This document shows positions 18,184 through 59,726 of a stretch of 64,000 nt of DNA, piece by piece. Positions within the stretch are counted from its first letter, which is position 1, and every line of letters starts with the position of its first letter. Both the position numbers and the translations under genes were made by a program. The stretch is from the NCBI GenBank assembly GCA_951406725.2, contig OX597824.1, positions 97,836,001 to 97,900,000 of the forward strand, read 5' to 3'. This DNA comes from Octopus vulgaris (lineage: Eukaryota). The notes below the pieces were generated by a model. It was given only the letters and a program-made list of their open reading frames with translations, did not search any database and was not told the origin of the DNA.

Positions 18184-19516
18184 GCATGTCTTCCTGTGTG
18201 CGATGGTAGATTAATTACATTGTTGCAGAAATTGTTAATTGTATCCCAATTTAATTTTTATGATCGCAATGTTGTCATCATTTTGTAAGTTTGTCTTGGA
18301 GGTGAAATGGGGCGGTGGGAGGCGGTGGTGATGGTGAGGGATGTGAGGGTGGCGGTGGCAGCGGTGTTGTCAGCTTGGGGAATTAGGGTATTAGCGATGT
18401 GAGGTAGAGGTAGGGGAGACGAAGGGTAAGGGTATAGATAATGAAGGCTGGTGAAAGGCTTAACATGGTGGCGGCGGCGGCGGTGGTGGTGGTTATATCA
18501 GAGAATGAATTGTTAATGGTGGTAGTTGTATAGAAATGAAGGTAATTGTGAAGGATGCGGTAGTGGTGGTGGTGATGTTGGGTTAGGAGGTGTCTATGGT
18601 GTGATAGTTAAAAGTGATGTTTCGTTGCTGCTGCTGTTGTTGTTGTTGCTTAACTACAGGCCAGACTCGGTCAAGTAGACCGTTGTTCAAAGACATTTCC
18701 AGTCGTGACCATCCCGTATTAGAAGTGAAATGTTGATGGGGAATATGGCGGGAATTCATATAAGTTTGTTCAATGTTATATATTATGGTGATCATCGATT
18801 TATGTAGGTAAATGTGGTTTGAGATTGAATGGAACTCAATGAGCAAACGTGGCTATCTATGAGAAAGAGAGAGAGAGAGAGAGAAAGAAAGAGAGGGAAA
18901 GAAAGTGAGAAAGTGAGAAAGAGACAGAGACTTATGGCGGTTGTATCTTATTGGTTTTAGGGTTTCCAGGCCCAAGTTGAGTGTTAGATACACATCTAAC
19001 ATTATCAACTGCCTTGAGGTAACTAAGTCGATATAAAAGGAATTAGGACAATCAACGTGATCTCCCTTGTTTGTATCTGGTCAGCAACTCTCCACAGATT
19101 TTCAGGCGCCAACATCAGTCACAAACCGAATCTCTGTTGAATCCTTTCAACACTTACATCAGCCACATTAGCAGACTTACCATTTATCCCCCCACCACCA
19201 CCCCTCTAATTTCATCGCCTCTCATAACATCACAATCCGTCCATCAGAACCTTGACCTTTGTTTTGGAAGGAAGAATGTCTACAATTCATCCTCTCATGG
19301 GTCACTTTCGAAGTGATGACTTGGATGGTCAACAGCTCTAGATCGTCCAAAGAATATCTGATAAGATTCAGTGTCACTCAGAGTTGACCATGTGATGGGG
19401 ATCTAGGCTTCAAACACACAAAGGATTCAGTTCTATATTTAAGAGATGAGGAATTTATGTACATTATTTACATTATTTACATTTGACGAGTATTTGTCCT
19501 CATCTTGTTTGTTGTT

Positions 19517-19562
19517 AACACAAAGTTTCGGCTGATATAGCCTCCAGCCTTCTTCAGGTGTC
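19517..19562 (-). ncRNA. Hammerhead-like motif (family A, mirror copy, stem III mutated)
   Basis: GACAC-CTGAAGA-A-GGCTG...CAGCC-GAAACTT-T-GTGTT. Confidence 0.6.
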
Positions 19563-19757
19563 TTGGGGAAATTTCGAACCCGGCAAAAAATCACTACGCC
19601 ATATACCGACGAGCATATGGAGTAGTAGTTAAGAGCGCGGACTACTAACCCCAAAATTCCGAGTTCTATTCCAGGCAGTGACCTGGATAATAACAACAAC
19701 AACAACAATATCGAAAAATGCCCTAGGAATGAGAACCCAGGTTCGAAATTTCCCCAC

Positions 19758-19803
19758 GACACCTGATGAAGGCTGGAGGCTATATCAGCCGAAACGTTGT
19801 GCT
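19758..19803 (+). ncRNA. Minimal type-I hammerhead ribozyme-like motif (family A)
   Basis: GACAC-CTGATGA-A-GGCTG(10-nt loop)CAGCC-GAAACGT-T-GTGCT. Canonical core, palindromic ACGT stem III, partial stem I. Confidence 0.75.
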
Positions 19804-19865
19804 AACAACAAACAAGATGAGGACAAATATCCGTCAAATGTAAATAATGTAAATAATGTACCCAA

Positions 19866-21648: not shown

Positions 21649-21824
21649 TCGCTCGCCAAAAATACCTTTTTATTTTCTCTCCCTGTTTATTTCTGTGTTC
21701 CTTTCTGTTGAAGAGCGTAGGCTCGAAATGTAAAAGACTTTCTCACTTCCCGAGCATTAAACTAATACATCTGTTTGTTGTCTACACACCCGTCGTCGTC
21801 TTTTGTTTTTTGTTTTGTAAATGC

Positions 21825-21829
<5 letters not shown>
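21648..21829 (+). mobile_element. Short (TA)n-embedded PLE-like element, family B, hammerhead-like motif at 21701-21736
   Basis: CTTT-CTGTTGA-A-GAGC-GTAG-GCTC-GAAATGT-A-AAAG. Near-identical to 50005-50160. (TA)n on both sides. Confidence 0.75.
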
Positions 21830-26035: not shown

Positions 26036-26592
26036 TATGAGCAACATCATCACCACCACCATCAGCAACAACGTCAACATGAACAACAACAGCCCGAAGA
26101 CTGAGGCATTTATTTAGACCCGGGGTCTCCTAATTTTGGTAATACCACCAGTTGATCATCCATCCGTCCCCTGACGCATCATTATTTTAATTGCAGTCAG
26201 AATCTGCTTCACTCGAACCTGAAACAACGGGCTCCACCGTTTTATGGTCAACTTTTTACGTTATGAGTTCAAATGTCGCCGTGGTCAGCTTCCTGCGTCA
26301 TGTCATCGATGTCTAAATTCAACTAACGAGGGAAATTCTTGGCTACTCTACATGCTAGAAACAGCAGTTCGCCTTCCTTAAAATCACACACTACTATCTA
26401 AATAATGAAGAAAACTGTGGCTATTGAAGCTTGAAAAAAAAATGAATGGTCACGTTTGGAAAGCCTTTGATCTTAAAACAGGTCGGGTGTTGCTGTTGTT
26501 TTAGACGTAGTGTTAATGTTACAATATTATGCGGACATTGCAAGTGAGAGGTGTCAATTGCAACAAAAGAGCAACCCATGAGAGATACTATA

Positions 26593-26872
26593 CAGCGGAT
26601 CTTCGGTTTACGAACAATTTTTCTAACATAAAACGTCTCGGGTGACGAACGGTGTGTCGAGTAACGAACACGCAAGCCAGGAACAACGTTTAGCGACAAG
26701 CTGGGAATGTCAGCGAGAGGGCGTCAGTTGGCGGCCTAGGTTTCGCTCATTGCACATCCCTGCTTCAATTTGCTGAGCCTTCACTTGGATTTCCAGTAGG
26801 GAAAAACAGTTTCGATTTACGAACATTTCAGCCTTGAGGAACGAATTAATTTCGTAAACCGAGGTTCTATTG
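26593..26872. mobile_element. Tc1/mariner (pogo/Tigger-like) MITE
   Basis: TIRs CAGCGGATCTTCGGTTTACGAA and TTCGTAAACCGAGGTTCTATTG, each flanked by TA. Internal TTACGAAC sub-repeats. Confidence 0.75.
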
Positions 26873-27796
26873 TATAAGCCTGCCTCCCTCACTGTCTCTG
26901 TCTGTCACTCTCTCTCTCTTTCTCTCTTTCTCTCACTCCAGCTCGTGTGAAACGGGTCGCAATCCGAACTCCTTTATTAAATTTTCTTTACTTTGTACAT
27001 TATGTTTATTTGGTAGAGAATACTGGGACCACACCGCGAGTGAAAGGTGTCAATTATCTCAGCCAATTAATAAATTAAGTCTTATTATAAGATTAATTGT
27101 CTCCAACACAGCCACACGTATTTATTTTCCTACCTCGTATTTATCACGACACTCTTCCCACACCTCGTCTCTCTCACTCTCCACCCCTATCTCTCTTTCT
27201 CTCTCCCTCTCCCTCTTTATCTCTCTCTCTCTCTCTCTCTTACATTACCTCTCACCACCACCATCAGCAACAACGTCAACATGAACAACAACAGCCCCGA
27301 AGACTGAGGCATTTATTTAGACCCGGGGTCTCCTAATTCTGGTAATACCACCAGTTGATCATCCATCCGTACCCTGACGCATCATTATTTTAATTGCAGC
27401 AGAATCTGCTTCACTCGAACCTGAAACAACGTGCTCCACCGTTTTATGGTCAACTTTTTACGTTATGAGTTCAAATGTCGCGTGGTCAACTTCCTGCGTC
27501 ATGTCATCGATGTCTAAATTCAACTAACGAGGGAAATTCTTGGCTACTCTACATGCTAGAAACAGCAGTTCGCCTTCCTTAAAATCACACACTACTATCT
27601 AAATAATGAAGAAAACTGTGGCTATTGAAGCTTGAAAAAAAAAATGAATGGTCACGTTTGGAAAGCCTTTGATCATAAAACATAGGTCGGGTGTTGCTGT
27701 TGTTTTAGACGTAGTGTTAATGTTACAATATTATGCGGACATTGCAAGTGAGAGGTGTCAATTGCAACAAAAGAGCAACCCATGAGAAATACTATA

Positions 27797-28076
27797 CAGC
27801 GGATCTTCGGTTTACGAACAATTTTTCTAACATAAAACGTCTCGGGTAACGAACGGTGTATCGAGTAACGAACTCGCAAGCCAGGAACAGCGTTTAGCGA
27901 CAAGCTGAGAATGTCAGCGAGAGGGCGTCAGTTGGCGGCCTAGGTTTCGCTCATTGCACATCCCTGCTTCAATTTGCTGTGCCTTCACTTGGATTTCCAG
28001 TAGGGAAAAACAGTTTCGATTTACGAACATTTCAGCCTTGAGGAACGAATTAATTTCGTAAACCGAGGTTCTATTG
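27797..28076. mobile_element. Tigger-like MITE, second copy created by the tandem duplication
   Basis: Same TIRs and TA flanks as 26593-26872. Confidence 0.75.
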
Positions 28077-28683
28077 TATAAGCATGTCTCCCTCACTGTC
28101 TCTGTCTGTCTCTCTCTCTCTCTTTCTCTCTTTCTCTCACTCCAGCTCGTGTGAAACGGGTCGCAATCCGAATTCCTTTATTAAATTTTCTTTACTTTGT
28201 ACATTATGTTTATTTTACAGAGACCACACCGCGAGTGAAAGGTGTCAATTATCTCAGCCAATTAATAAATTAAGTCTTATTATAAGATTAATTGTCTCCA
28301 ACACAGCCACACGTATTTATTTTCCTACCTCGTATTTATCACGACCCTCTTCCCACACCTCGTCTCTCTCACTCTCCACCCCTATCTCTCTTTCTCTCTC
28401 CCTCTCCCTCTTTATCTCTCTCTCTCTCTCTCTTACATTACCTCTTTCTCAGCCTTCCTCATAACCTTTCACTAATGGCGCTCTGGTAATCACTTCCGCT
28501 ATTTACAAGTGAAAAGTTTAATTAATAATTAATGATTTCTGCGGCGGCGTTGTGCCATTGCTCTGTCAGAAATATATATAATCGATGGTTCCTTATTTTC
28601 TCCTCATAAGCGACTGGAACTGAGCTAACATCACAGAAAGAACACAGCTCAAAATCCTCAAAAGTATATATATATATATATAT

Positions 28684-30427: not shown

Positions 30428-30720
30428 TATACAATATGTTACATTACTCGGTAGTCAAGATAAAACTCTGAGTTTCAGATGCCGAAGTGAAATCCACAAC
30501 ACCATCTCTTCGGTTATCTGGCTATTTGAAAACGTTATCTTATAACGTTTTCAAATAGCCAGATAACCGAAGAGATGGTGTTGTGGATTTCACTTCGGCA
30601 TCTGAAACTCAGAGTTTTATCTTGACTACCGAGTAATGTAACATATTGTATAGATAAATTTCCTCTATTTACATAATATTGAGGTCTCTTTCTTTCTTTT
30701 GTTATCTTACCGTTTTATCA
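30428..30720. mobile_element. Fold-back PLE-like element, family D: perfect 111-bp palindrome plus a 68-bp one-sided extension
   Basis: Arms 30428-30538 and 30542-30652, loop CTT, (TA)n flanks. The tail is homologous to 41078-41187 and 44388-44493. Confidence 0.92.
30561..30622 (+). ncRNA. Type-I hammerhead ribozyme-like motif (family D), with an identical mirror copy at 30458-30519 (-)
   Basis: AGATAA-CCGAAGA-GATG...CATC-T-GAAACTC-A-GAGT-T-TTATCT. 6-bp stem I, 4-bp stem II, ACTC/GAGT stem III, GUU triplet. Confidence 0.72.
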
Positions 30721-30754
<34 letters not shown>

Positions 30755-31686
30755 ATACACAGACTGTCGCAAAACTGCTTGTTATAACACGTTCTTAACA
30801 ACTTTGAAATCCCAGAAAATGGTGATCGGGGTCAGTGCCCTCCTTTCTGACTAAGCGATATAAAAAGGGAGTCCTTCTATGTTTCCCCGTCTGGAGTCAT
30901 ATTGTTACCGACGCCCTTGTTTTTGTACTCGTTTCTTTTTTGTTGTTCTTTTGCTCTTTTGCCTCTTGAAGTGCAATGTCCTCCGCCCCCACACTCACAC
31001 ACATTTACATACACTAAATGTAAATGCAGCTATCAATAAGACATCAATAGATGTTATTGTTGCGTGCACAAAATGGTGCATAAATACATCTGTGCATGTG
31101 CATATATTTCAACAGATTGCATCGAGGTGGAAGAACGGGTTTGTTATATGACTCACGGAAATGTGCAACAGCGGCGGAGGCGGGAAGATTGCACCGGCGG
31201 TAGTGGTAAGGGTGTGATTGATGGTGGTGGCGGTGGTGGTGGTCTTAGTTGTATGGTCCTGGTGGTTGGGTGCCAACTCCGGTGGTGATGGTCATTTTAA
31301 AGTGAAATGAAATTCTACCATATTCAAAACTATACACGCCAAAATCCTCATCTATCAAGATAACTACCACCACCAACACCACCCACCGCCATAGCCACAT
31401 CCTTCATCACGACTCTTAACCCTTCAGCCTCCTCCAACGAAGAAATGATGGCAATATCGCCACCACCACCACCACTACCATGTTAATCTACCTCCACACG
31501 TTAAAAGTAAATGTATTTTTCACACACACACACAAGTCTTAAGTAATTATCCGGTCCGTTTCACATCAAACCCTAACAAACTTCTGATCTCCATATGTTG
31601 CTCAATGTTATCTTTATTATATTACATTATATATACATGTATATACATATACGCAGAAACATACATATATATCACGCATATTCATA

Positions 31687-31747
<61 letters not shown>

Positions 31748-31906
31748 GTATATATATGCATATATATATATGTATCTATATATACATATATATACATACG
31801 TATATACATGTATGTGTATATATGTACATAAATGTATATATATGTATATACATATACATATGCATATGTATGTATATATACATATATATATGTATACATA
31901 TATATA

Positions 31907-31956
<50 letters not shown>

Positions 31957-32579
31957 CACACACATCATGCATAATTGCATTGTATCATACATTTAGAAAT
32001 TAGTTCTTTCTGTTTGTTCTTCCATTTTTTTCTTAGACTTAATGTCATAGCCTCGTAATTCGTAAGTTATATAAACAATTGTTGAGCACTTTTGGAAAAA
32101 CAATATAAATGGAAACCTCGCTAAGACTAATTATTGATGTACCCTGCGGAGTACGTGTGGGTGTGTTAGTGAGTGTGTGTATGTGAGTGATTGTGTGTGC
32201 GTGTGTGTTTAAATAGATTGAGAGAGAGAGAGAGAGAGAGAGAGAATTTCTCTTCTGACAATGTTATTTTTAATCCAATCTAACAACTTATTTAACTTCT
32301 AACAAGTTAGTTTATATGTGTGTGTATATATGTGTGTATATATGCTTGTACGTGTGTGTGTGTGTGTGTTGTTACGGAGTCCTGATATTAAATGTGTCCA
32401 TCGTACCTATTACATTGTTGCTATGTTATCAGTGAAGAGAAGACATCCGGTGTCACGTGGCGTTGTGTCGGCTGCGCTGAGTGTATTTCGGGTTTATACA
32501 GCCTGTTATATACATCCGCGACCGCATCATCACTGGAGCATACACATATATGATGGAAATGTATATAACATATTGCAAA

Positions 32580-32740
32580 TGGCGGTCAATTGCCGAGATC
32601 GTCGGAGAGGTCGGTAAAACGTTTGCCCGTATATCTTCTCCGGCTGTCCGAGTTCTGAGTTCAAATCGGGCCGAAGTCAATGTTTGCCTTTCATTATTTC
32701 GGTATTTGTGCATAAAATAAGAGTAATCCAGAACAGTGGA
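32580..32740 (+). mobile_element. Degenerate Nin/Deu-like SINE
   Basis: GTTCTGAGTTCAAATCGGGCCGAAGTCAATGTTTGCCTTTCAT matches the 29113 family. Confidence 0.65.
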
Positions 32741-33320
32741 TTGGTAGGATTGCAAGCGAATTAGACGGGTTGCATCTGTTCCGGTTCTTAGTGTCTTTAG
32801 TTCAAATTCCACTCCTGCTAATTGTCAACGCTAATGGCTAATTACTCAATCACGTGACGGCAATTGAATACGAAGGAGATTGAGGTGAAATGTGGCTATC
32901 ATTTTACTTGGATGATAATGATGTGCTGTTGTTGTTGTAGTGGTGGTGGTGGAGGTAGTGGTGGTGTGTACACAGACCTTTAGTGAAAGACATTCCAGCG
33001 GTGACCATCTAGATTTTATTTTCCCTCTGTAACATAACCTTGAATACGTTATCTGAAGTGACGCTTTTAAAGATAATTGGCAGCGATTCAGGGAGATGTA
33101 GCTACTATTTCTAGCAGGTCGTGCAACCATGATCAAGCAGTGAAGGTGTCAGTGGTTGTTGTTGTTGTCGTCATTGTTAGACCGAGATCCACATCATCAA
33201 TGATTGGACACAGAAACATGTGTAACAGACGAAATAAAGAATGCCAAATCCATGTTTTATGTTCTTCAGGTCCCTTTCGGACCCTGCAGCAAAAGGGATT
33301 TAACGCGGTTGTTATTTAGA

Positions 33321-33515
33321 GCGGAGGCGCAATGGCCCAGTGGTTAGGGCAGCGGACTCGCGGTCAGAGGATAGCGGTTTCGATTCCCAGCCCGGGCGTT
33401 GTGTGTGTTTATTGAGCAAAAACACCTAAAAGCTCCACGAGGCTCCGGCAGGGGGCGGGCGACCCCTGTTGTACTCTTTCACCCCAACTTTCTCTCGCTC
33501 TCTCTTCCTGTTTCT
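33321..33515 (+). mobile_element. tRNA-derived SINE (head B), 3'-truncated
   Basis: A box TGGCCCAGTGG, B box GGTTTCGATTCC. Matches 40670-40858. Confidence 0.85.
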
Positions 33516-33624
33516 TGAGTTCGACGCCACTGCCCGCATGTGTGTTTCCTGCCGAGAGGTAGGTTCGTCTGGAACCCCTGACAAGAAGAGATCGAGTTTA
33601 GCTTTAAAGAAACCCACATCCACA

Positions 33625-33628
<4 letters not shown>
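33516..33628 (-). mobile_element. CR1-like LINE 3'-terminal fragment
   Basis: Peptide FFKAKLDLFLSGVPDEP...RAVASNS resembles the invertebrate CR1 ORF2 C-terminus (FK.KLD.FL..VPDEP...RAA.SNS). Confidence 0.7.
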
Positions 33629-33672
<44 letters not shown>

Positions 33673-33676
<4 letters not shown>

Positions 33677-33997
33677 AATATTAGGGAATGAATCCAAATT
33701 TACAGGGAAAAAAATCAGAATTAGGGTTAAATCCAATTTTATAGTAAAATATTATATAATATAATTCGAGACAAAACCACTATTTTAAAACCAAACAAGG
33801 AAAGACTTAATCAATACATAAAATTTTAATATAAATTAAATAAACCGCCACTACAAATGTTTCATGTCTGCTCCGACAGTCGGAGCAGACATGAAACATT
33901 TGTAGTGGCGGTTTATTTAATTTATATTAAAATTTTATGTATTGATTAAGTCTTTCCTTGTTTGGTTTTAAAATAGTGGTTTTGTCTCGAATTATAT

Positions 33998-34000
<3 letters not shown>
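33673..34000. mobile_element. Fold-back element: perfect 122-bp palindrome plus a one-sided extension of about 80 bp
   Basis: Arms 33756-33877 and 33879-34000, 1-nt centre, (TA)n on both sides. GAAACATTTGTA reads outward from the apex. Confidence 0.92.
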
Positions 34001-34091
<91 letters not shown>

Positions 34092-34799
34092 ATATATACA
34101 TGTATCTGTGTGTGTGCATATAGTGAGCGGTGAGCGAGAGAGAGAGAGTGTGTATGTGTGTGTAGTATTAGTGAGACAACTTGCTTTTAGAGATAAGCTG
34201 TGTTAGGATTTGAACTGAAACTGGAAAGAGAGACAAATTGTGTATCAATCAGTGTTCCGCCGGCCATATTGTCTTGCAGAGATAATGGCAATGAAGTGTG
34301 TGGTTATTAATAGGGGGGGAGGGAAACAGGTTTAGAAATAGGGAGGAGGAGGAGAGGGAGGAAGAAAAGAAAGAAAGGCAAGAAGAAGAAGAAGAAGAAG
34401 AAGAAAAAGAACAGTGACGATAACGGCGGCAGCGGTGGCGAGGACGACGACGACGATGACGGTTGAAGATGGTGTAGGGGGGGGGGTCGTAGACGGGGAA
34501 AAAGTAAAGAACGTTTACGAAGAGTTTCCCATGTTTACAGAACTTAGAATAATTTCGTGACAAGTGATGACAGTATTGGGAATCGATCAGCTGACAGCTG
34601 ACACCGACACCACCGCCACCACCACCACCACCACCACGCTTGGTACTCTTGATACTGGAGCTTTTGTTGTTGCTGTTGTTGTTGCTGCTGCTGCGAGTGA
34701 TTTAGTCGATGCTGTTCCCAGCCATTGTATTTGTGACTAATGACTGACCCCACCGCCTCTATTTATAACATTATTCAGCGATATTGTGGGGGTGGGGGA

Positions 34800-34909
34800 A
34801 GTAGTAGTAGTAGTAGTAGTAGCAGCAGCAGTGGTGGTGGTGGTAGTGGTGGTAGTGGTAAAGGTAGTGGTAGTGGTAATAGTAGTAGTGGTAATAGTAG
34901 TAGTGGTAA

Positions 34910-34958
<49 letters not shown>

Positions 34959-35137
34959 GGTGGTAGTGATGGTGGTGATGGTAGTGGTAGAGGTAGAGGT
35001 AGTTGTAGTGGTAATAGTAGTAGTGGTAGTAGTAGTAGTAGTAGTAATAGTGGTGGTAGTAGTGGTGGTGGTGGTGGTAGTGATGGTGGTGATGGTAGTG
35101 GTAGAGGTAGAGGTAGTGGTAGTAGTAGTAGTAGTAG
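34800..35137. repeat. (GTA/GTG)n compound microsatellite with an internally duplicated block
   Basis: The block GGTGGTAGTGATGGTGGTGATGGTAGTGGTAGAGGTAGAGGTAGT occurs twice, about 114 bp apart. Confidence 0.9.
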
Positions 35138-35967
35138 AGGGACATGACTACAGAGGGGAAACTAGTGGCTTTACTAAGTCATCATCATGAGTCGAGACAG
35201 AAGAAGAGTGCAGAAGGTGGTGGTGGGGGAGGGCAGTCCTCTGGGGTGGCTCCTGCCCCACTTCCCATTCGAACACCAATACTACCAATCCAGTCTCACA
35301 ATGTGACCACCACCACGACGATACTATATCATTGTCATCGCGGCCATTACGCCCCCCCCCCCCACCCACCAACACCAGCGCCACTCACCATCGCGGCCGC
35401 CACAAACGCCATCACTGAGAGGTGCTTATCGGAGATGGGTTGTAACAGGGGCAAAAGGGGATTTGTTATGGGGTTTCAGGGGTGGGGGATGGGGTGAGAA
35501 TGTCAAAATAGGAAAGGCCACGGAGTGGGGGTACAATGATGAGAAATCCCAGCACGAAGAGATGGGGGGGGGGCGAGGAGGCATGTGGATGGCTGGTTGC
35601 CTGTGTCTATATACATACATCCCTTTACATCCATCCATGTATATATACATACACACACACACACACACATATATATATTATATATATATATATATCATAT
35701 ATAATATATATAGAGAGAGACAGACAGACAAACAAACAGACAGACAGAGAAAGAGAGACAGAGACAGACAGACAGAGACGGGTAGATAGATGTGGTGTGC
35801 GTTCTAATCGCCATTCTATCATCAGTAAACAGGAAAATTACCAGTAACGCCCTCTTCAAAACAGATACGACTTTTACTATGGAAAGTACATGCTATATAC
35901 GGATATACGGGTGTATATATGTGTGAATGAGTGTACATAGGTATATGTATACATACATATATGCATG

Positions 35968-36014
<47 letters not shown>

Positions 36015-36054
36015 TGTATATATATATATATATATATACATGTGTGTGTATTTA

Positions 36055-36116
<62 letters not shown>

Positions 36117-37091
36117 CTTTACCTCTCTCTTACTCCTCCTCTTCCTCCTCGACTCTCTCTGGCACGTGATCAGAGGGAAGCCATCTTCACCAAGACCAGA
36201 CCTGCTTATCCTGTCTCTTCATAAGCTGTCTTCTTAAGCGTTCAGAATAATTTTTCCATCGTCTTGACTAATGTTTGTTTTTTCTGTTTTGTTCTCATTG
36301 TTTTGCCTTTTACTGTTTTTACTTTTTTTATTGTTTTTACTGTTTTGTTCTTACTGTCCTGTTCTTGTTACCACGTTTACTCTCCGCAAAAATCTTAAAT
36401 TTTATTTAATTTGCTTTGCAGGAAGAACTGTTTCAACGAAGTCGCGTCTTGTCCTTACCTTCGGAACGCGGAGTAGACGAAACAGGGACAACTGAAGAAG
36501 GAGAATATTCTTTGTGTTGTATGTCTTGTGCTCTGTTTACTTCAGCACTGGATGAGGGCCATCACGAGGTGTCTCAATGTGGTAGCGTTCACTATCGGAT
36601 GTATGGTGCACGAAAACATCAGCTACAAGTTTCATGTGATGGGAATAACGCCTTTGATAAGAGAGGCAAGAAGCTGAAGAATCATCTAAGGACGTTACAC
36701 GCAATATCACGTGGTCTCCTAACTCTCAACATGAATGAAGCATTTGAATAACTGCGTTTGATGCATTGTCAGCGAGGGGACCGGACGACGGTCACTTAGT
36801 GTCCAACAATCGTAGGAGAGTGCCATGATAGGCACGGATGAAGAGAAGCCACCTGATGCTGTCACGCAGTGTGTTTTTGTCAGGATTGGTAGAACCCCTT
36901 CATTTTCATTTTTTTCTTTCTTCTTTATGAATCAAGTTGAATATGTCGGCCATCTTTCTGAGACTGTTTTTTTTCTACGTGGTGGCCTTGGGTCTTGTTT
37001 GTTCTCGGTTACCAGGCACGCACGAACATATTCGTACACACACACACACACATACACACACACGGACACACACACGCACACACGCGCACAC

Positions 37092-37124
<33 letters not shown>

Positions 37125-37894
37125 TCTAATATGTACGTGTGTGTGAGTGCATATGTATGCGTGTGTTTATGTCCGTCTGTCTTAATTCTTCCTTAACTCC
37201 CCCCCCAACCTTTATAGTCCTGGCTTCACGTGATAATTTGCTGTAAGTATATTTCCCCACGATCCGTTAGGAACCACCGATTAGCTGTGTCAACCACCCA
37301 CTCAATTCTTTGTAGTCACACACACGTGTATATATAATATATTTGTATATATGTATATGTGTGTGTATATACATACATATATATATATATGTGTGTGTGT
37401 GTGTGTATACATACGTAGATGCACGTACATGCACATATATATACACACATATACACTCGTAAATATGTATGTGTGTGTGCATGTGTGTGTGTTTGTGTGT
37501 GCGTGTATGTGAGAGGGGTAAGAGAATGCTATATACTTCTTTTATCTCTCGTCAACAGATGACATACTTTCACCATTTTCTGTTTATCAACAAATGTTCA
37601 CCATTTCATTCATTCAGAACTTCTGCAATGACTATAAAGTCCTTCCGGTGTAGTTTCATTGACTTCCGGTTATAACTTGGGAACACCCCCCAAATAGCTT
37701 AATCTTTAAAAAAAGCCTTCTCAAATATCTTAGGAGTTTCCCTCCAAAAGTTATCGTATCGCCAAATTTATTGTTGGTCTTCTGAAATAGATTCACCTTT
37801 TCGTAAATATTAAAGATCTCCAAGTAATTCCACATTACTGCAAATATTGTGACGTATCTGGAGTATCTGGCTACAATTTAGATATTGAAATGTA

Positions 37895-37957
<63 letters not shown>

Positions 37958-38496
37958 CTATATGTGTCTCATAAATGGAGAGTGTACAGATGAAAAGTTG
38001 ATGCCAGATAACATCGAAAGTCAAGTGTTTTGGAGTGACATCTGGAGCACAAGAAGGACGCTGAATGGTTGCAAGAACTGAAACAAACAGTAGTCTGTCC
38101 AAAACGGGCAGAACTAGTCATTTCAGTGAACGAAATCAGCAAAAAAGTTAGCAGCTGGAAGGCCCCGGGACCAGATGGAGTTCAAGTCTACTGGATCTAA
38201 AGATTTGAGGAATGTCATGCACCAATAGCTGCGCAACTCAACGCCTTGTTAAATGCCGACCAAGTAATATCAGAGTGGTTGACATTGGGTAGGACAGTGC
38301 TGTGCCTGAAAAAACATCGAAAAAGACAATACGGTAGACAATTATGGGCTGATATCCTGTTTGCCACTTATGTGGAAGTTGACTGGAATACTCGCAGAGT
38401 CAATGTACGAACATCTGGAATAAAATGGAGTCCTGCTACATGAGCAGAAGGGTTGCAAGCGTAAATGCAGAGGTACCAAGGATCAACTCCTGAAAT
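37958..38496 (+). mobile_element. R4/Dong-clade non-LTR retrotransposon RT fragment (pseudogenised)
   Basis: Broken translation FWSDIWS...SWKAPGPDGVQVYWI*...EWLTLGRTVL...[50 protein letters not shown]. Begins directly after (TAA)n at 37897-37957. Confidence 0.88.
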
Positions 38497-39942
38497 GGTA
38501 AGTTTCACTTTGTTTTCGATCTTCGCGGCGAAAATATATATATTTTTTCATTTTATAGAACTCACCCATTTCAAAATAAAAAGCATCGTACCGAAATTTT
38601 CAACTGCTTACCTCCCCGGGGTCAGTTTTTGGAACAGCGATCTCGGCCTTGTATTTCCCATGTTTAAGCCAAAGTTCCACCACTTTGGCCAAAGCCTACG
38701 CGAACAGCTCACGGCGTTGGAAATAACAACAACAACAACAAAGGCATCAAAATCGAAAAACATGGACACAAGCGACACCACCATCATCGCCGCTGCAATA
38801 AATAGCGACAACAACAGCAATAAGAACAACAATGGCGATGTCAAAAGTAAATAACAGAAACAGCAACGAAAGCGAAAAACGATAATGAGAAAATGGCCGA
38901 AATTAACAACAACAGCAACAACAGCAAGAACAAATGCTATCGCCATCACCACCACCATCACCACCTCAACTACCACCACAGCCACCACTATCATCACCAC
39001 CACTGTCACCACCATCACAATCATCACCACAACTACCGCCACAACCACCACAATCACCACCACACAACTGCCGACACAATGCCAAGCGTAGTGAAGACCA
39101 TTGTGGATAATAGCAGACTATATCGCAACGTTTCAAACCAAGGAATGTTGGCAGAACGATCTTACCAAACTTTCCGCGAAGCATAACAGACCTGATTTAA
39201 TCATTTGAAACGGGGAAAAGAAAATCGCATCGTCTTCGAGATCAACGTCTCTTCAGATTTGAACATCTCCTTCAGAATCAGTGAAAAGGATATAGGAAGT
39301 TGTTTTTGAAGCATAGAGCTTCTCTGCCATCATCATAAATTCATATCTATACCAGTAATTATTGGTGTGCATGGTTATGTTAGTAAATGTGTAAATGACA
39401 GTTTGGAAATAATGTAGTTTTTTTTTCAGCGACGAAAGTAACCGATTGACATACACTTTGTAAATAGAGGTAGTGTGCGGAACAATAAATATATACAAGA
39501 CGTTTCTAAATAACGATAGGTAACTCTTCATCTTATTCGAATCTTATGATAGACTTTTCTTTATCAAAGGCCAACAGCTTCTTAAAGAAGGAATTCAAAA
39601 ATATGTACAAGAACTGCGGGACAAATACACACACACATACATATACATGCATACATGCATGCATACATACATACAAACACATACGCTCATTCATTCAAAC
39701 ATTTTTACATACATACATATATACATATATTCATTCATAAACAAATACATGTTACACGCATACACACACACACACACTACAACACAACATAACATACAAA
39801 ACACATACACACTTATAACCACAGACAATTACAGAGAGATATATACCCACATATACATGTATACGCACAAGCGTAGACAAAAATATACACCTACTCACTC
39901 TGACGCACACATGCCAAGATATGCACACACACACACACACAA

Positions 39943-39986
<44 letters not shown>

Positions 39987-40483
39987 GCGCGCGCGTGCAC
40001 TCGTTTTCCTGCGTTATGTTGAACACGCTGTTATACAAAGATGTTAGTGTATTTAGAGAAGGAATTAATACAAGGTTAGATATCGGGTGGTCGTGATGCT
40101 GGGTGTTGAATGGTCGGGTATCGAGTGTCGGGTACTCGTTTGAAGTTTTGGGATGGTTTGGATGCTGAGTATTCGTGTGTCGAGTGGCTGCTTGCAGAAT
40201 GGTGAGGTTGTCAAGTGGTCGGGTACAGTCGGGTAGCCAGGGGGTCGGGGGGGGGGGTGAAAAACGGTTTGATTTTCTTTTTTGAGATTTTAATTTACAT
40301 TTTAAAAACACAAGGCCTCTGTAAATGTTAACACAGAACGGATGTCCCTGAACGCTTCATTCCCACGATGATAAGGCTTACACACACACACACACGCACA
40401 TACATACATACATACATACATACATACATACATACATACATACATACATACATACATACATACATGCAAACATACGTGCATCG

Positions 40484-40858
40484 TGGCACTCTGTCGGTTA
40501 CGAAAACGAGGGTTCCAGTTGATCCGATCAATGGAACAGCCTGCTCGTGAAATCAACGTGCAAGTGGTTGAGTACTCCACAGACATGTATACCCTTAACG
40601 TAGTTCCCGGGGAGATTCAGCGTGACACAGAGTGTGACAAGGATGGTCCTTTGAAATGCAGGCACAACAGAAACAGGAAGAAAGAGTGAGAGAAAGTTGT
40701 GGTGAAAGAGTACAGCAGGGTTCGCCACCACCCCCTGTCGGAGCCTCGTGGAGCTTTAGGTGTTTTCGCTCAATAAACTCTCACAACGCCCGGTCTGGGA
40801 ATCGAAACCGCGATCCTATGACCGTGAGTCCGTTGCCCCAAACGCTGAGCCATTGCGC
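40484..40858 (-). mobile_element. tRNA-derived SINE (head B + tail T)
   Basis: The 5' half matches 33321-33515 and the 3' half matches 8140-8323. Confidence 0.88.
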
Positions 40859-40957
40859 TTTCACGTACGTACATACATACATGCATGCATTCATACATTC
40901 GTACATGCACACACACGTATACACACATCTATCCGTTCACGCATACACATATAATAT

Positions 40958-40993
<36 letters not shown>

Positions 40994-41011
40994 CATATAC
41001 ATATATATATA

Positions 41012-41077
<66 letters not shown>

Positions 41078-41079
<2 letters not shown>

Positions 41080-41187
41080 AAAGAAAGAAAGAGACCTCGA
41101 TATTATGTAAATAGAGGAATTTATCTGTAAATATAATATGTGACAATTATCATGGCTACCGAATAATTGTCACATATTATATTTACA
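41078..41187. mobile_element. Family D remnant with a 25-bp fold-back
   Basis: Arms 41126-41150 and 41163-41187. Homologous to 30621-30701. (TA)n flanks. Confidence 0.8.
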
Positions 41188-41393
41188 TATATATATATAT
41201 ATATTAAACCCACAATATACGAAAGCATCTTTGCCCTGACGTATGGCCTCTTAGACGACTCACGTACACACACATACAAAGGGAGAGAGCGAGAGAGGGA
41301 GGGAAAGAGAGAGAGAGAGCGAGAGAGGGAAGGAAAGAGAGAGAAGCAAAAGAAAAGATGAAGATATACAGACGTACAGAGAGTTGAGGACTG

Positions 41394-41436
41394 AGGGTGC
41401 GTACAGGGTGTGTACAGGGTGCGTACAGGGTGCGTA
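41394..41436. repeat. 11-bp minisatellite (AGGGTGCGTAC) x4
   Basis: Directly visible. Confidence 0.9.
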
Positions 41437-41684
41437 AAAAATGTGTGAGACTTGGCAGTGGTTGAACAAATGTAGATTTTTCTTTTTAGCTGAATGTGTG
41501 TTAACTGTACTTTAGATAATGACAGATTTAGTAGGGGGTGGGGGGTAGGGTGGGGTGGATGAGATGAGGCCTTGACTTATAAAGATAGGATTCTGATATA
41601 CATACATACATATATACATATACATATACACGTACGCGAACGCACATACACACATACATGTACACATATATGCATATATAAGTA

Positions 41685-41771
<87 letters not shown>

Positions 41772-41774
41772 ATA

Positions 41775-41953
41775 AAGTTAATCCAAACATGAAAACACAA
41801 AGAGAAAACACAACAACGCGAGGACGTGGAACAAGTATAGTGTTATTGGACGCTCAGGAAAGAAGGAGGGTTTAACGTTTCGAGCGGAGCTCTTCGTCGG
41901 AAACATAGAAGGAAAGATCCAGAGAAGGGAAGACAGAGGAAAAAATCGCCAAC

Positions 41954-41955
<2 letters not shown>
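41775..41955 (-). mobile_element. Short (TA)n-embedded PLE-like element, family E, hammerhead-like motif at 41870-41904
   Basis: GTTT-CCGACGA-A-GAGC-TCC-GCTC-GAAACGT-T-AAAC. (TA)n on both sides. Confidence 0.75.
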
Positions 41956-41984
<29 letters not shown>

Positions 41985-41987
<3 letters not shown>

Positions 41988-42075
41988 CGCAGGAGTGGGT
42001 GTGTGGTAAGTAGCTTGCTTACCAACCACATGGTTCCAGGTTCAGTTCCACTGCGTGGCACCTTGGGCATGTGTA
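41985..42075 (+). mobile_element. SINE 5' head fragment
   Basis: Matches the reverse complement of 55375-55460 and 44585-44675. Confidence 0.8.
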
Positions 42076-42447
42076 TCGTTTCTCTGCTGTACGAATAAAA
42101 CAGCCAGTACTCAGCACGGCTTAGGCGCTCACCCACTCAGTTGCTTTTTAAAATGTAGAACTCATGTAAAAGCCATCAAAGTATTCTACATTTGGAGAAG
42201 AGGATGATTAGCATCGGAATCAATGTTGAAGACTCGGGGTCGGCGAGGAAATCGTAAGATGGCGAGGAAACTTGTTGACACTTCATAATAGACAGAAATA
42301 TTAAGAAATAAACTGTTTTAGAACAGAACAGAAAAGAATTTTATGTGTGATTCAGCAGCGAAAAATGACGGTTTTATGAAGTAATTTAGTTTCATAACAT
42401 GGTCGAATATGAAGTCATATGATAAATATACACAGGCACACACAGAC

Positions 42448-42478
<31 letters not shown>

Positions 42479-42568
42479 CACACACACGCACGCACACGTA
42501 CACACACGTAATACTTTAGTTTATCTAACAATCTAACACACCTAAGATTATATATTTAGGTTACTGTC

Positions 42569-42627
<59 letters not shown>

Positions 42628-42801
42628 TGAGTTGTTGTGTGTGCGCGCACACATACACACACACACACGCACACACACAGAACGCATACATATATATAGA
42701 TCTATTGACATAGCTGCACACACGCAGTCAGATACACATATCAACATATATATACGTCTATGCTTCTGTATTGTGTGTGCGTGTGTGTCTGTGTGTACCT
42801 G

Positions 42802-42844
<43 letters not shown>

Positions 42845-43149
42845 GTACCCGTGTTTTTATAGACACGTGTGATATAGAAAGCCGCTGATATATCTGATAC
42901 GATATATCTAACAATAACACATAAGCAGGGACCTCCTCCCTTTCATGTCTGACACATCTCCCTGATGAAACGATCGCTGCCTCCCCCGGGGATCGTTGTA
43001 TCATCCCAGAAATCACTCAGCGAACTTCGTTGGAAGCTAAAACGGAAACGTTGGAATCCTTAATCCTACATCCAAATCACAAATCCAGACCGTAAATCTA
43101 TATTTTAAGTGGAAATCATAAATCCACTCCTTAAAACCGAATTCTTGAT

Positions 43150-43830
43150 TCATGTCTCTTTTGCTGGTTTCAGTTATTGGATTGCGACCATGCTGGGGCA
43201 CTGCCCTGAAGAGTTTTAGTCAAACAACCTCAGACCAGAACTCGTGTGTTTTTGTTTGTTTGTTTTTTTTTTTTTTTTTTCAATTTTATGTCTGGTATTT
43301 ATTCGATCTGATTATTTTGCCGATTCGCTAATACGGGTACATACACAAGCCAACTGCGGTTGTCAAGCGGGTGTTGGAAACAAACACGAAGACAAACACA
43401 CGAATACATGCATGCATGCATACATACATACATACATACAAAAATACCTTGCTGTTGATGTTGAAATTCCAATGACGGAGCCTTGGATCTAGGTTAGAAA
43501 CCGGTTCTTTCTCTATTGGCAAGAAATCTTGGAATAAACTGTATAATGATATACATACATACATACATACATACATAAATACATACATACATACATACAT
43601 ACATACATGCATAAATACATACATACATACATACATACATACATACATACATACATACATACATACATACATACATACACAACTGGCTTCCACACAATTT
43701 CACTCGACTAAATCCATTCACAAGACTTTGGTCGGCCCACGGCTTTAATAGAAGACACACGCCCAAGGTGCGACGCAGTGGGACTGAAATTACGTTGCTG
43801 CAAAGCGAACCACGCACCCTCCAGTCATAA
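43150..43830 (-). mobile_element. SINE interrupted by (TACA)n and a nested insertion
   Basis: Colinear with the 55080-55460 copy. Confidence 0.7.
43441..43550 (+). mobile_element. Short (TACA)n-embedded element, family F, with a degenerate hammerhead-like motif
   Basis: CCAATGA-CGG-AGCCT(TGGATCT)AGGTT-A-GAAACCGGT-T with palindromic ACCGGT and a downstream AATAAA. Stem I is poor. Confidence 0.5.
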
Positions 43831-44273
43831 ATCCTAAGATGTATCGCTTTATTCTAGATCGTAACTCCGTGTTATTTATCCAAATCTGAACTTCACATCT
43901 CAAATCTAGATTTTAAATTTGCATTCTTATTCTGGATCTTAGATCCATATAAGAAATCCAAATTTTAAATCTAGATTTTCATCTGACCCTAAATTCACAT
44001 TTATAAAAATCCTGGCTTAGATATCCATTTAAATCGATATAATCGATTAAAGTTTCAAAGTGGTGTCCCATCTTGAGCTCTCCAGCTTAGAATGAAAGGT
44101 GAGTGTATCTCGGTCGATTGACAAACAACCACGAAACTTGTCGATTCGATCTCCAACGCATCCCAACTGTGGGTGTGGCGTAACACCGGTCGTCAAGCGG
44201 TGGTGGGACACAAATACAGACACACAGACGCACACACACACACACACAATATATAATATATATATATATATAC

Positions 44274-44362
<89 letters not shown>

Positions 44363-44387
44363 ATTTCGTGTATGTATATATATATAT

Positions 44388-44493
44388 TGATAGAAATGGT
44401 AAGACAACAAAAGAATGAAAGAGACCTCGATATTATGTGTAAATAGAAGAATTTATCTGTAAATATAACATGTGACAATTATATTTACAGATA
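44388..44493. mobile_element. Family D remnant with a 15-bp fold-back
   Basis: Arms 44454-44468 and 44479-44493. Homologous to 30640-30720 in reverse orientation. (TA)n flanks. Confidence 0.8.
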
Positions 44494-49813: not shown

Positions 49814-49867
<54 letters not shown>

Positions 49868-49950
49868 TAAAAAATGAAGTTTGAAAATGCTGCTTCACTT
49901 CATTTTTTACAAATATATACCCACTCGTATACGAGCTAATCTTATTATAA

Positions 49951-50004
<54 letters not shown>

Positions 50005-50008
<4 letters not shown>

Positions 50009-50160
50009 CCCTGTTTATTTCTGTGTTCCTTTCTGTTGAAGAGCGTAGGCTCGAAACGTAAAAGACTTTCTCACTTCCCGAGCGTTAAACTAATACATCT
50101 GTTTGTTGTCTACACACCCGTTCTTCGTCTTTTTCTTTTTTTTTTTTTGTAAATTCGCTC
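50005..50160 (+). mobile_element. Short (TA)n-embedded PLE-like element, family B, hammerhead-like motif at 50029-50064
   Basis: CTTT-CTGTTGA-A-GAGC-GTAG-GCTC-GAAACGT-A-AAAG. Confidence 0.78.
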
Positions 50161-54714: not shown

Positions 54715-54959
54715 TATACAGTCTACTCAAGTCTGGTCTCAGATGTGATGGCGAGAACGGATTAAGAGATTAAACCCCTCACACATATACAAATAGTCAC
54801 GCACTCTTCTATATACACACGCAGACACAAATACACATGAGATGTGTATATGTTGCTTGTATGTATGTATGTATGTATGTATGTATATACACATATATAC
54901 ACACACATATATATATACACATACACACATACATAAATATGTGTATGTGTGTGTGCGTC

Positions 54960-55457
54960 TTTGTGTCAGTGTTTGTCCCCCACCACCGCTTGACAACCGG
55001 TGTTGGTGTGTGTACGTCGCCATAACCTAGCGGTTCGGCCTAAGAGACCGATAGAGTATGTACCAGGTTTAAAAGAGTATTTACTTGTTCCAGTCATTTG
55101 ACTGCGGCCATGCTGGAGCACCGCCTTTAGTCGAGCAAATCGACCCCAGAACTTATTCTTTGTAAGCCTAGTACTTATTCTATCGGTCTCTTTTTGTCGA
55201 ACCGCTAGGTTACGGGGACACAAACACACCAGCATCGGTTGTGAAGCGATGTTGGGGGTGGACAAACACAGACACACAAACATATACATATATACGACGG
55301 GCTTCATTCAGTTTCCGTCTACCAAATCTACTCACAAGGCTTTTGTTGGCCCGAAGCTATAGTAGAAGACACTTGCCCCAGGTGCCACGCAGTCGGACTG
55401 AACCCGGAACCATGTGGTTGGTAAGTAAGCTACTTACCACACAGCCACTCCTACGCC

Positions 55458-57866: not shown

Positions 57867-58622
57867 AGTTCAATACGCAAACAACGAGAGGAACAAATGG
57901 AAAACAGGACAATATAAAGAATGACCCTTCATCAGTTGTCTGCTGTCTCATTTCGAGCATTGAACGACATATAAGACTTTAAAGACAGTTGCTCCCATAA
58001 GTACCTAAATAAAATTTTGGATTTATGGGAAGAACAACAGGATAGTGGAGACATACAAGGAAGCCGAACGAAAACAAACATGGAGCGTCGTTAGCCTAGA
58101 ACGAGAGTAAAATAGCGAACGCTGGAGAAATATTTTCTTTGAAAAGAGAAACGAAAGAAGAGAGAGATAGAATACGTCCAGTTCTTAGGATAGTCCTGAA
58201 GAAAAGATGACCACGTGAAGTCCTAAGGACTGGACGTCTTCTGTCTCTCTCTTCTATCTTTTCTCTATTCAAAGAAAACATTTCTCCTGGGTTCGCTGTT
58301 TTACCCTCGTTCTGGTCCAACGATCCTCCATGTTTGTTTGCGTTCGGTTTCCTTATATGTGTCCAGTCCTATTGTTGTTCCCAACATAGACCCCACACCA
58401 TAAATCCCAAATTTTATTTTGGTACTCATGGGAGCAACTGTCTTCGAAGACTCATATTGTCGTTCAATGCTCCAAATGAGAAGTAGACAGACAGCCGACA
58501 ACTGATGAAGGGTCGTTCTTTATGTTACTCGTCCTGTTTCCCATTTGTTTCTCTCGTTGTTTGCGTATTGAACTCATCTGTTTTCGTATTTCATGTTGTT
58601 TACTGTTGGTGACGTCCTGTAC

Positions 58623-58625
<3 letters not shown>
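57867..58625. mobile_element. Large diverged fold-back element (arms about 325 and 355 bp)
   Basis: 57867-58190 is an imperfect reverse complement of 58221-58574. Spacer about 30 bp, one-sided extension about 50 bp, microsatellite flanks. Confidence 0.9.
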
Positions 58626-59421: not shown

Positions 59422-59640
59422 GAAGGCGGTGAACTGGCAGAAGCGTTAGCACGCCGGACCAAATGCTTAGCGGCATTCGTCCGTCCTTACGTTCTGTGTT
59501 CAAACTCCGCCGAAGTCGACTTTGCCTTTCATCCTTTCGGGGTCGATAAAATAAGTACCAGTAATGCACTGGGGTCGATGTAATCGAATAACAACTCCAC
59601 CCCCAAAATTTCAGGCCTTGGGTCTACAACAGAAAGAATT
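59422..59640 (+). mobile_element. Nin/Deu-like SINE
   Basis: GCCTTTCATCCTTTCGGGGTCGATAAAATAAGTACCAG core. Confidence 0.85.
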
Positions 59641-59668
59641 AGCATTATTGTTGTTGTTGTTGTTGTTG

Positions 59669-59726
<58 letters not shown>

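Follow-up and report, generated by a model that had tools for sequence, protein, structure and literature searches.

Fold-back elements in the window

The analysed stretch of Octopus vulgaris DNA (the window, 64 kb) holds seven fold-backs, all seven asymmetric: three copies of family D (D1, D2 and D3) and the elements of families A, B, C and E (Table 1). The family D copies occupy 30428-30720, 41078-41187 and 44388-44493, the places given for them in a preliminary description of the sequence. They are homologous, with pairwise identities of 86.7-93.4% over 69-85 nt (E 5e-28 to 3e-19), and within the 64-kb window the family is confined to these three loci (profile search; five arm matches at E<=5.3e-07, the next at E 0.78). 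The arms of each copy are identical (107/107 in D1, 25/25 in D2, 15/15 in D3) and enclose loops of 3, 12 and 10 nt, in agreement with the 111, 25 and 15 bp proposed earlier; D1 reaches 111 when its overlap with TA is included and 107 without it. Pure TA runs of 13-39 nt flank all three copies on each side, and since a TSD is unreadable inside TA, these flanks give no TSD length. Each locus consists of two 3' pieces of one element in head-to-head orientation, and the 3' end of each piece is fused to the TA array.

The same combination of a long and a short arm had been described for unrelated families at 19428, 33673, 49864 and 57867. The geometry holds at all four places, but the tails vary in length, at about 30 (with an outer end not independently fixed), 82, 41 and about 50 nt, and the TA setting is shared in part: the elements at 33674 and 49864 lie in (TA)n, that at 19428 has no TA, and that at 57867 has TA on its long side only, its short arm ending within a GATA/GACA array. 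Three hammerhead-bearing stubs in TA (families G and H) have no inverted arm, so the fold-back is not obligatory.

Table 1. Features of the fold-back elements and hammerhead-bearing stubs in the window
Feature	Position	Strand	Remarks
D1 short arm	30432..30538	(-)	107 bp; inverted 5'-truncated pLTR copy without tail
Mirror copy of hammerhead motif in D1 short arm	core at 30513	minus	
D1 apex loop	30539..30541	.	3 nt, closed by TTAT/ATAA
D1 long arm, portion common with short arm	30542..30652	(+)	
D1 type-I hammerhead motif	30556..30628	(+)	core 30567-30573, C at core position 4
D1 hammerhead parts			stem II 30574-30603; GAAA 30604-30607; palindromic stem III; GUU triplet
D1 predicted cut	first base after, 30617	(+)	
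D1 tail	30653..30720	(+)	68 nt, absent from short arm; tail-start motif at 30654
D2 tail	41078..41125	(-)	48 nt; tail-start motif 41114-41124
D2 long arm	41126..41150	(-)	25 bp paired; inner end at same base as D3 long arm
D2 short arm with 12-nt loop (41151-41162)	41147..41187	(+)	
D3 tail	44388..44453	(-)	66 nt; outer end same as D1
D3 long arm	44454..44482	(-)	15 bp paired plus 10-nt loop (44469-44478); 4-5 nt junction microhomology
D3 short arm	44479..44493	(+)	15 bp
Family A fold-back	19428..19860	.	arms 93% identical, 153-nt spacer; TA flanks absent
Family A hammerhead cores	19763; 19557	(+); (-)	
Family B fold-back in (TA)n	33674..34000	.	arms 122/122 identical, 1-nt loop, 82-nt tail
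Family C fold-back in (TA)n	49864..49954	.	arms ~17 bp, 41-nt tail; family label provisional
Family E fold-back	57867..58625	.	arms 78% identical; ~50-nt extension reaching (TA)n array
Family G copy 1	21650..21828	(+)	hammerhead-bearing stub in (TA)n, inverted arm absent
Family G copy 2	50005..50160	(+)	minimal type-I hammerhead, core 50033; in (TA)n, inverted arm absent
Family H	41775..41955	(-)	minimal type-I hammerhead, core 41900; TA-flanked, inverted arm absent

Hammerhead motifs and probable assignment to Penelope-like elements

The hammerhead motif of D1, a predicted ribozyme with stems I, II and III and a GUU triplet, had no match in any of 3000 shuffles of the arm. The ribozyme sense in both D1 arms points outward from the apex. 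The window contains five strict hammerhead cores; 40 shuffled windows had 0.125 on average and never more than one. Rfam made no hammerhead call in any of three short regions, that of D1 included, and the Rfam matches to the whole window (150 of 566 covered) are dominated by microsatellite miRNA matches. The ribozyme fold of D1 differs from its MFE structure. A motif search of the window found no complete hammerhead in family B and no intact one in family E. Above the Rfam cut-off, D1 matched mir-9 (60.4 and 60.3 bits on the two strands); this identity was rejected, as the match is equally strong on either strand, lies inside the perfect palindrome of a repeat and has a seed that differs from the Rfam consensus.

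Type-I hammerheads with a short palindromic stem III are the form described for the pseudo-LTRs (pLTRs) of Penelope-like elements (PLEs) (PMC6765202, PMC4209133), and hammerhead pairs on opposite strands, 100-700 bp apart, are reported in PMC4209133. The presence of such a motif in D1 therefore points to a PLE pLTR and not to a MITE. Family D is probably a severely 5'-truncated remnant of a hammerhead-bearing, (TA)n-targeting PLE that inserted by the mechanism proposed below. It contains an inverted, 5'-truncated copy in head-to-head orientation, and just one of its ends carries a tail, an arrangement known from PLEs (PMC3846280, PMC8557442). These two features and the hammerhead motif bear out the earlier argument against DNA-transposon TIRs. 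With EN+ PLEs (D. virilis Penelope; Adineta vaga Pen2a/Pen2; PMC3846280, PMC8557442, PMC2377424) family D shares the head-to-head 5'-truncated inverted copy, variable inverted arms, the tail on one side and the type-I hammerhead in the repeat; unlike them, it consists of the terminal 100-290 bp only, with no ORF between the arms. Inverted repeats of PLEs differ in size among copies, active Penelope copies included (PMC2377424), and for Octopus vulgaris there is a report of active Penelope families (PMC13282606). Structures of this class are already known, inverted pLTRs, the one-sided tail and the (TA)n bias all having been published.

A MITE or fold-back DNA transposon, flanked by TA target duplications and eroded at one end, would also display inverted repeats, TA flanks and no ORF. 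This origin is very improbable, as mutually inverted ends occur in 0/3 copies, the one-sided extension is conserved among copies that differ in length and centre, and a hammerhead motif lies inside the arm. We give still less credence to an assembly artefact caused by fold-back chimeric reads at microsatellites: the arms of D1 and family B are indeed 100% identical and abut TA runs, but the short-arm ends of three diverged copies fall at one element position, divergence has brought arm identity down to 93% in family A and 78% in family E, and the geometry agrees with published PLE structure.

The Naiad and Neptune clades (PMC8557442) resemble family D in (TA)n or microsatellite targeting, tandem/inverted structure and a tail. 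Naiads were rejected because the canonical hammerhead is absent from them (PMC8557442) and present as a motif in D1; in cephalopods they are remnants only, whereas family D has a hammerhead and identical arms. Membership of Neptune or another named PLE clade is decided on protein, by RT phylogeny and a Zn-finger-like linker, whereas family D is known from its non-coding ends alone. Non-LTR retrozymes (bioRxiv 10.64898/2026.07.22.740005) are likewise non-coding, PLE-related and equipped with a type-I hammerhead, but form direct tandem arrays with a ribozyme per unit; they too were rejected, as the stubs here are inverted pairs or solo copies only, with no direct tandem units.

RT or GIY-YIG endonuclease sequence, which a canonical EN+ PLE parent would carry in a single ORF, was not found linked to family D, the copies being too short to encode either; with no RT or endonuclease ORF found, we leave the PLE clade of the family unassigned. 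A Pfam scan of 113 of the 123 listed window ORFs, which left out 10 overlying a GPCR gene, revealed no transposon domain, only two sub-threshold matches. For a 46-aa frame in family A, a weak search found no homologue among longer proteins. ARAGORN predicted 0 tRNAs, and the relatives of the nearest gene are octopod.

Outer ends, apices and the TA target

Two fixed outer ends and a variable apex had been predicted for family D. The short arms do end near one element position, with a spread of 4 nt: in D1 and D2 the last base directly precedes the G of a common AGATAAA anchor, and in D3 the end lies 4 nt further on, a clustering with a chance probability of 0.006-0.017 depending on the range assumed. 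The long arm alone runs further, by 68 (D1), 48 (D2) and 66 nt (D3), much as the 50-70 bp described; these lengths were taken from an anchored comparison, and local alignments for D2, D3 and C, which locked onto TA runs, were not used. The long-arm outer end is identical in D1 and D3 and 19-20 nt shorter in D2, so a fixed long end holds for two of the three copies, and in this sample of three a third end exists. A stem-loop at the tail start is unsupported (z -1.36, -0.56 and +1.43 in D1, D2 and D3).

Loops and arms differ among the copies as predicted, but the apex does not vary freely: D2 and D3 share the base at which their long arms start. Both these apices lie on microhomologies of 4-5 nt (in D2, 4 nt between short and long arm at 41147-41150); at least 4 nt is found in 2-5% of the background per junction. 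The D2 loop is continuous with the short arm and the D3 loop with the long arm. The 5' start of the D2 short arm is the homologue of D1 30617, the first base past the predicted ribozyme cut.

Palindromes can lose their centre by deletion between short repeats. A PLE might insert as a long near-perfect palindrome whose centre is later lost between direct repeats of 4-5 nt, which would make the asymmetry primary and the apex secondary. The D2 (TTAT) and D3 (TTAT/ATTAT) junctions do lie on a direct repeat of one strand, with long arms stopping at the same base; read from the sequence, the D3 apex would result if a D2-type apex lost 30 nt. The long-armed copies, D1 and family B, have loops of 1-3 nt, and palindrome instability is general (PMC7999016). 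However, the start of the D2 short arm at the predicted ribozyme cut would be mere chance under deletion (one case, noted post hoc, and TTAT is there anyway), the 25-bp arms of D2 are still identical, and active Penelope copies already vary in inverted-repeat size (PMC2377424). Such a decay series is possible, if unlikely. The earlier statement that family D was captured at three fold-back lengths is unproven: the junctions of D2 and D3 are equally compatible with later loss of the centre from a longer palindrome.

In the preliminary description twin TPRT was further proposed, the RNA 3' end serving as one start and an internal site annealed to (TA)n as the other. In family D the in-phase TA overlap is only 4, 1 and 3 nt (D1, D2 and D3), which does not support annealing; the overlap in D1 has P 0.043 taken alone, and over five elements the total is 8 against 6.0 expected (strict test, P 0.30). 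Moreover, D2 and D3 each have their longest TA run (5 nt) some 10 nt upstream and bypass it. A looser TA measure, devised post hoc after the strict test came out negative, gave P 0.003 across the five elements and P 0.13 in family D alone. In families B and C the end lies next to the longest TA run of the element (6 and 7 nt) but one base out of phase; the short arm of family E overlaps its own microsatellite target by ~6 nt (by eye), and family A has no TA target. The long end differs in D2, and in PMC11167929 the start sites used in vitro by the protein of PAc (Poseidon of Anolis carolinensis) are both internal and without homology to the target. In this exact form the proposal seems to us rather improbable.

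Somewhat less doubtful, though still improbable, is a single priming event in which tail-primed cDNA, folded at a short inverted repeat, would serve as its own template and then use microhomology at an AT-rich site to join the other end of the target. It would make asymmetry obligatory, matching 7/7 fold-backs, and the D3 loop is continuous with the long arm; self-priming has been proposed for PLE palindromic junctions (PMC3846280), and the loops of 1-12 nt with short stems fit the 5-9 bp repeats with 3-12 bp spacers given in PMC7999016. The position of families B and C beside their longest TA run, with the loose test on five elements, also agrees. Nevertheless, a single snap-back of this kind cannot yield D2, whose loop belongs to the short arm and would require a later flip of the spacer. 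In-phase TA overlap at chance level, the better TA runs ignored by D2 and D3, and the ending of family A at the same motif as family D without a TA target likewise argue against it.

Proposed insertion from two internal start sites

In L1 twin priming cDNA is primed on each of the two target strands, and microhomology joins the resulting cDNAs, which are copied from two non-overlapping parts of one RNA. An L1-type product was rejected for family D, in which the arms duplicate the same 107, 25 and 15 bases and the second start is at a fixed site; as the same bases are present twice, the arms presumably do not derive from two non-overlapping parts of one RNA.

In a 2024 study (PMC11167929), a purified PLE protein cut both strands in vitro and extended them from two start sites inside the RNA, between which the tail lies. 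This biochemistry, and the fact that both element 3' ends face the target, support the earlier claim that both target ends are primed on element RNA; the further claim of a start at the RNA 3' end is unsupported, both starts being internal in that study. The mechanism of the preliminary description is thus largely published already. By analogy with the published biochemistry, we propose that an RT-endonuclease would nick both strands of the TA array and that each nick would prime cDNA at one of two preferred internal RNA start sites, the tail presumably being the stretch between them. The twice-copied bases of the arms may come from a pair of pLTR templates, located on separate RNAs or within a single tandem transcript, or else the new cDNA may itself have been copied. 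The two cDNA 3' ends would then join through 4-5 nt of TTAT/ATAA microhomology, setting the apex, and some apices were perhaps shortened later by deletion between the same short repeats.

PAc resembles family D, as interpreted here, in having two start sites bounding the tail, priming on both strands and an AT-rich target. The cut being at +26, its start region, given as 111-118 nt into the ORF, lies 85-92 nt beyond the cut; families D, A, G and H have their long ends about 90-104 nt beyond the predicted cut. In contrast, no difference in start site between the strands was observed for PAc, whereas all 7/7 fold-backs here are asymmetric, and PAc gave no reads ending at the ribozyme cut, whereas here one arm starts at the predicted cut.

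The short arm of family A ends right before an 11-nt tail-start motif that also lies just 3' of the proximal end in family D, although the two families are unrelated. One could speculate, with little confidence, about an obligately asymmetric complex: an RT dimer would bind two pLTR RNAs, which the palindromic ribozyme stem might hold together as a pair, and one subunit would always use the distal start, the other a proximal start set by the short cis-motif just 3' of it. Ribozyme-cleaved RNA would be usable as template in vivo, with cDNA running off at the cut. If true, the PLE hammerhead would gain a role in integration and the one-sided tail would be explained; the origin of inverted pLTRs and the one-sided tail, and the role of the hammerhead, are stated to be open in PMC8557442.

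The main use of these observations is in annotation, as the stubs resemble MITEs or miRNA hairpins yet represent PLE ends. The new testable details are the 7/7 asymmetry, the 11-nt motif in two unrelated families and the arm start at the predicted cut. With seven fold-backs and three solo ribozyme stubs in this one 64-kb window, an octopus genome should contain enough copies to tabulate where cDNA starts, which arm the loop belongs to and how often an end falls at the ribozyme cut, which would allow an in vivo test of the in vitro model by computation alone. For PLEs, tails of 30-40 bp have been published; those of family D (48-68 nt) and of the remaining TA-flanked families (41-82 nt) exceed this.

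Geometry of family D and other fold-backs

Re-reading of the sequence at each locus confirmed the three family D copies (D1, D2 and D3) where the preliminary description had placed them. The copies are homologous (86.7–93.4% identity in pairwise comparison of the three), and a profile search of the 64-kb window found no fourth locus. All are flanked on either side by TA runs of 13–39 nt, in a window rich in microsatellites (242 tandem-repeat rows). The long arm carries a tail and the inverted short arm does not; the two match perfectly over 107 bp in D1, 25 bp in D2 and 15 bp in D3, around loops of 3, 12 and 10 nt, respectively. As had been proposed, the short arms end at a common position (spread of at most 4 nt at a shared anchor; chance of such clustering 0.006–0.017), and the long arms run about 50–70 bp further (68, 48 and 66 nt). 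Of the two fixed outer ends predicted, the short-arm end was found, and the long-arm end is shared by D1 and D3, D2 stopping 19–20 nt earlier. The apex also departs from the prediction, in that the long arm starts at one and the same inner base in D2 and D3.

Among 47 islands of 35–700 nt between TA arrays, identified by an independent scan of the window, five carry a non-microsatellite fold-back touching a TA array (D1–D3 and families B and C), all asymmetric. Self-BLAST added families A and E, so that the asymmetry previously noted in these four families recurs in each, and in 7/7 fold-backs overall. Self-BLAST also lists the 43902 palindrome and two inverted pairs of other repeats with weak matches (54943, 59434), which are not part of this count. 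A TA flank is absent from family A and present on the long side only in family E.

Features located in the window
Feature	Positions	Strand	Remarks
7tm_1 receptor gene	4556–5803	−	Rhodopsin-family GPCR, single ORF; clearest gene
Family A fold-back	19428–19860
Family A spacer	19584–19736		A-box/B-box-like words, then (AAC)n stretch
Family G stubs	21650–21828; 50005–50160
Tandem duplication	26065–28362		Recent, about 1.2 kb; 97.7% over 822 bp, 94.3% over 229 bp (self-BLAST)
D1	30428–30720
mir-9 match	30498–30582		Rfam; 60.4 and 60.3 bits (two strands), gathering score 58.6
D1 ATG	30575–30625		At start of ribozyme stem II
Family B fold-back	33674–34000
Family B hexamer	33722–33730		Lone, in the tail
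Family E relative	36353–36540		Partial, non-inverted (E 1.7e-08); beside T-rich tandem repeat
D2	41078–41187
Family H stub	41775–41955
Palindrome relative	43051–43128		Weak (E 0.021)
Palindrome	43902–43978		77 bp, imperfect, near-symmetric; no TA flanks
D3	44388–44493
Family C fold-back	49864–49954
Inverted pairs	54943–55295; 59434–60005		Abundant SINE-like repeats, 73–78% identity (self-BLAST)
Family E fold-back	57867–58625

Hammerhead motif and relation to Penelope-like elements

Both D1 arms contain a type-I hammerhead motif (6-bp stem I, palindromic stem III, GUU triplet), with a predicted cut immediately before base 30617; 3000 shuffles of the arm gave no match. Strict hammerhead cores number five in the window; 40 shuffled windows average 0.125, and none has more than 1. 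Rfam made no hammerhead call in the three regions tested, and the predicted D1 ribozyme fold differs from the minimum-energy fold. The motif gives the orientation of the element: reading in each arm runs away from the apex, with the 5' ends meeting there and the 3' ends on the target side.

PMC6765202 and PMC6155905 give a type-I hammerhead with short palindromic stem III as the signature of the pseudo-LTR (pLTR) of Penelope-like elements (PLEs). Head-to-head inverted pLTRs with an optional one-sided tail, the same arrangement as in family D, are described for PLEs in PMC3846280, PMC8557442 and PMC8969392, and PLE inverted repeats differ in size among copies, like the family D arms (PMC2377424). 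Other papers note opposite-strand hammerhead pairs 100–700 bp apart (PMC4209133), very short 5'-truncated PLE insertions into microsatellites (PMC9977147) and recently active Penelope-like families in O. vulgaris (PMC13282606). Neither the 113 window ORFs nor a homologue search yielded a reverse transcriptase (RT) or endonuclease, so the PLE membership of family D rests on non-coding features. The earlier argument against DNA-transposon TIRs was borne out: none of the three copies has mutually inverted ends, and the MITE reading was rejected.

An ATG at the start of stem II, as in D1, is also described for the PAc ORF, but the D1 frame stops after 16 codons. Three hammerhead stubs lie in TA without an inverted arm (families G and H, weakly related at E about 1e-3); they terminate about 96–100 nt past the predicted cut, similar to the D1 long arm (104 nt).

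Proposed mechanisms for the outer ends and the apex

PMC11167929 shows for a purified PLE protein that it cuts the two strands and extends each of them, that reverse transcription begins at two internal RNA sites lacking target homology, and that these sites bound the tail. The both-strand extension supports the suggestion that both target ends are primed on element RNA; a start at the RNA 3' end is not supported, both starts there being internal. Annealing of an internal site to (TA)n is also unsupported, given those start sites and an in-phase TA overlap at the short end (4, 1, 3, 0 and 0 nt in five elements) summing to 8 against 6.0 expected (P = 0.30). A looser measure, the longest TA run lying no more than 1 nt away, was chosen after the strict test and gave 23 against 12.6 for the five elements (P = 0.003) and P = 0.13 for family D alone; there may thus be a weak AT-rich preference at the short end.

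One lead suggests that a cis-signal, instead of TA annealing, may set the short-arm end. The family A tail opens with an 11-mer that recurs unchanged in the D2 tail, 1 nt in from its start; no other word shared among the 33 cross-family arm pairs compared is as long (others 6–10 nt). All four window matches to the tail-start pattern lie at tail starts. Family A has no TA target.

Unlike L1 twin priming on one RNA, family D arms carry identical bases twice, which would require a second template or the copying of newly made cDNA. The D2 and D3 junctions lie on 4–5 nt TTAT/ATAA microhomology (background 2–5% per junction), and the same 4-mer closes the D1 stem. A single snap-back of tail-primed cDNA (geometry from PMC7999016) predicts a loop continuous with the long arm only, as in D3; the D2 loop, however, is continuous with the short arm, which, barring a later spacer flip, fits better with two cDNAs that annealed through their 3' ends. 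Centre deletion from a longer palindrome also fits the D2 and D3 junctions, so the claim that one family was captured at three lengths is unproven.

The D2 short arm begins at the base homologous to D1 position 30617, immediately past the predicted cut. An RT running off a cleaved RNA would give such an end. This is a single case noted post hoc, and PMC11167929 reports that cleavage is dispensable in vitro and that no reads end at the cut.

The literature already contains the PLE architecture, its target bias and the explanation by two starts. Papers listed for Penelope together with twin priming and inverted copies are on subjects other than PLE insertion, and listings and passages on octopus Penelope with hammerheads or microsatellites, from a library with few subscription journals and without Repbase, gave no description of these families. 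Non-LTR retrozymes (10.64898/2026.07.22.740005) are tandem units, unlike the family D fold-backs. A bolder reading, which we consider improbable, is a two-template complex that is obligately asymmetric, has a proximal-start motif in common between families and now and then uses cleaved RNA; it rests on the seven asymmetric fold-backs, a single shared motif and a single end that coincides with the cut. Independent equal choice of two sites per end would give 7/7 asymmetry once in 128, all seven having been named in the preliminary description.

Other repeats and annotation of the window

Sequence words in the family A spacer suggest either a nested SINE or a head of tRNA origin joined to a PLE-type 3' end; no tRNA was reported by ARAGORN. 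The telomere-like hexamer of family B is a single copy and likely due to chance. The SINE-like inverted pairs are, as far as examined, other than PLE-type fold-backs.

The mir-9 match on the D1 hairpin is an annotation trap. It probably arose by chance, its score raised by the perfect palindrome; on the strand opposite the ribozyme core, 19/23 positions agree with the mir-9 consensus 5' arm, and there is a difference in the seed. The host is an octopod, judging by the 7tm_1 receptor, which clusters at 90% identity with proteins named isotocin receptor(-like) in Octopus sinensis, O. bimaculoides and Argonauta hians.
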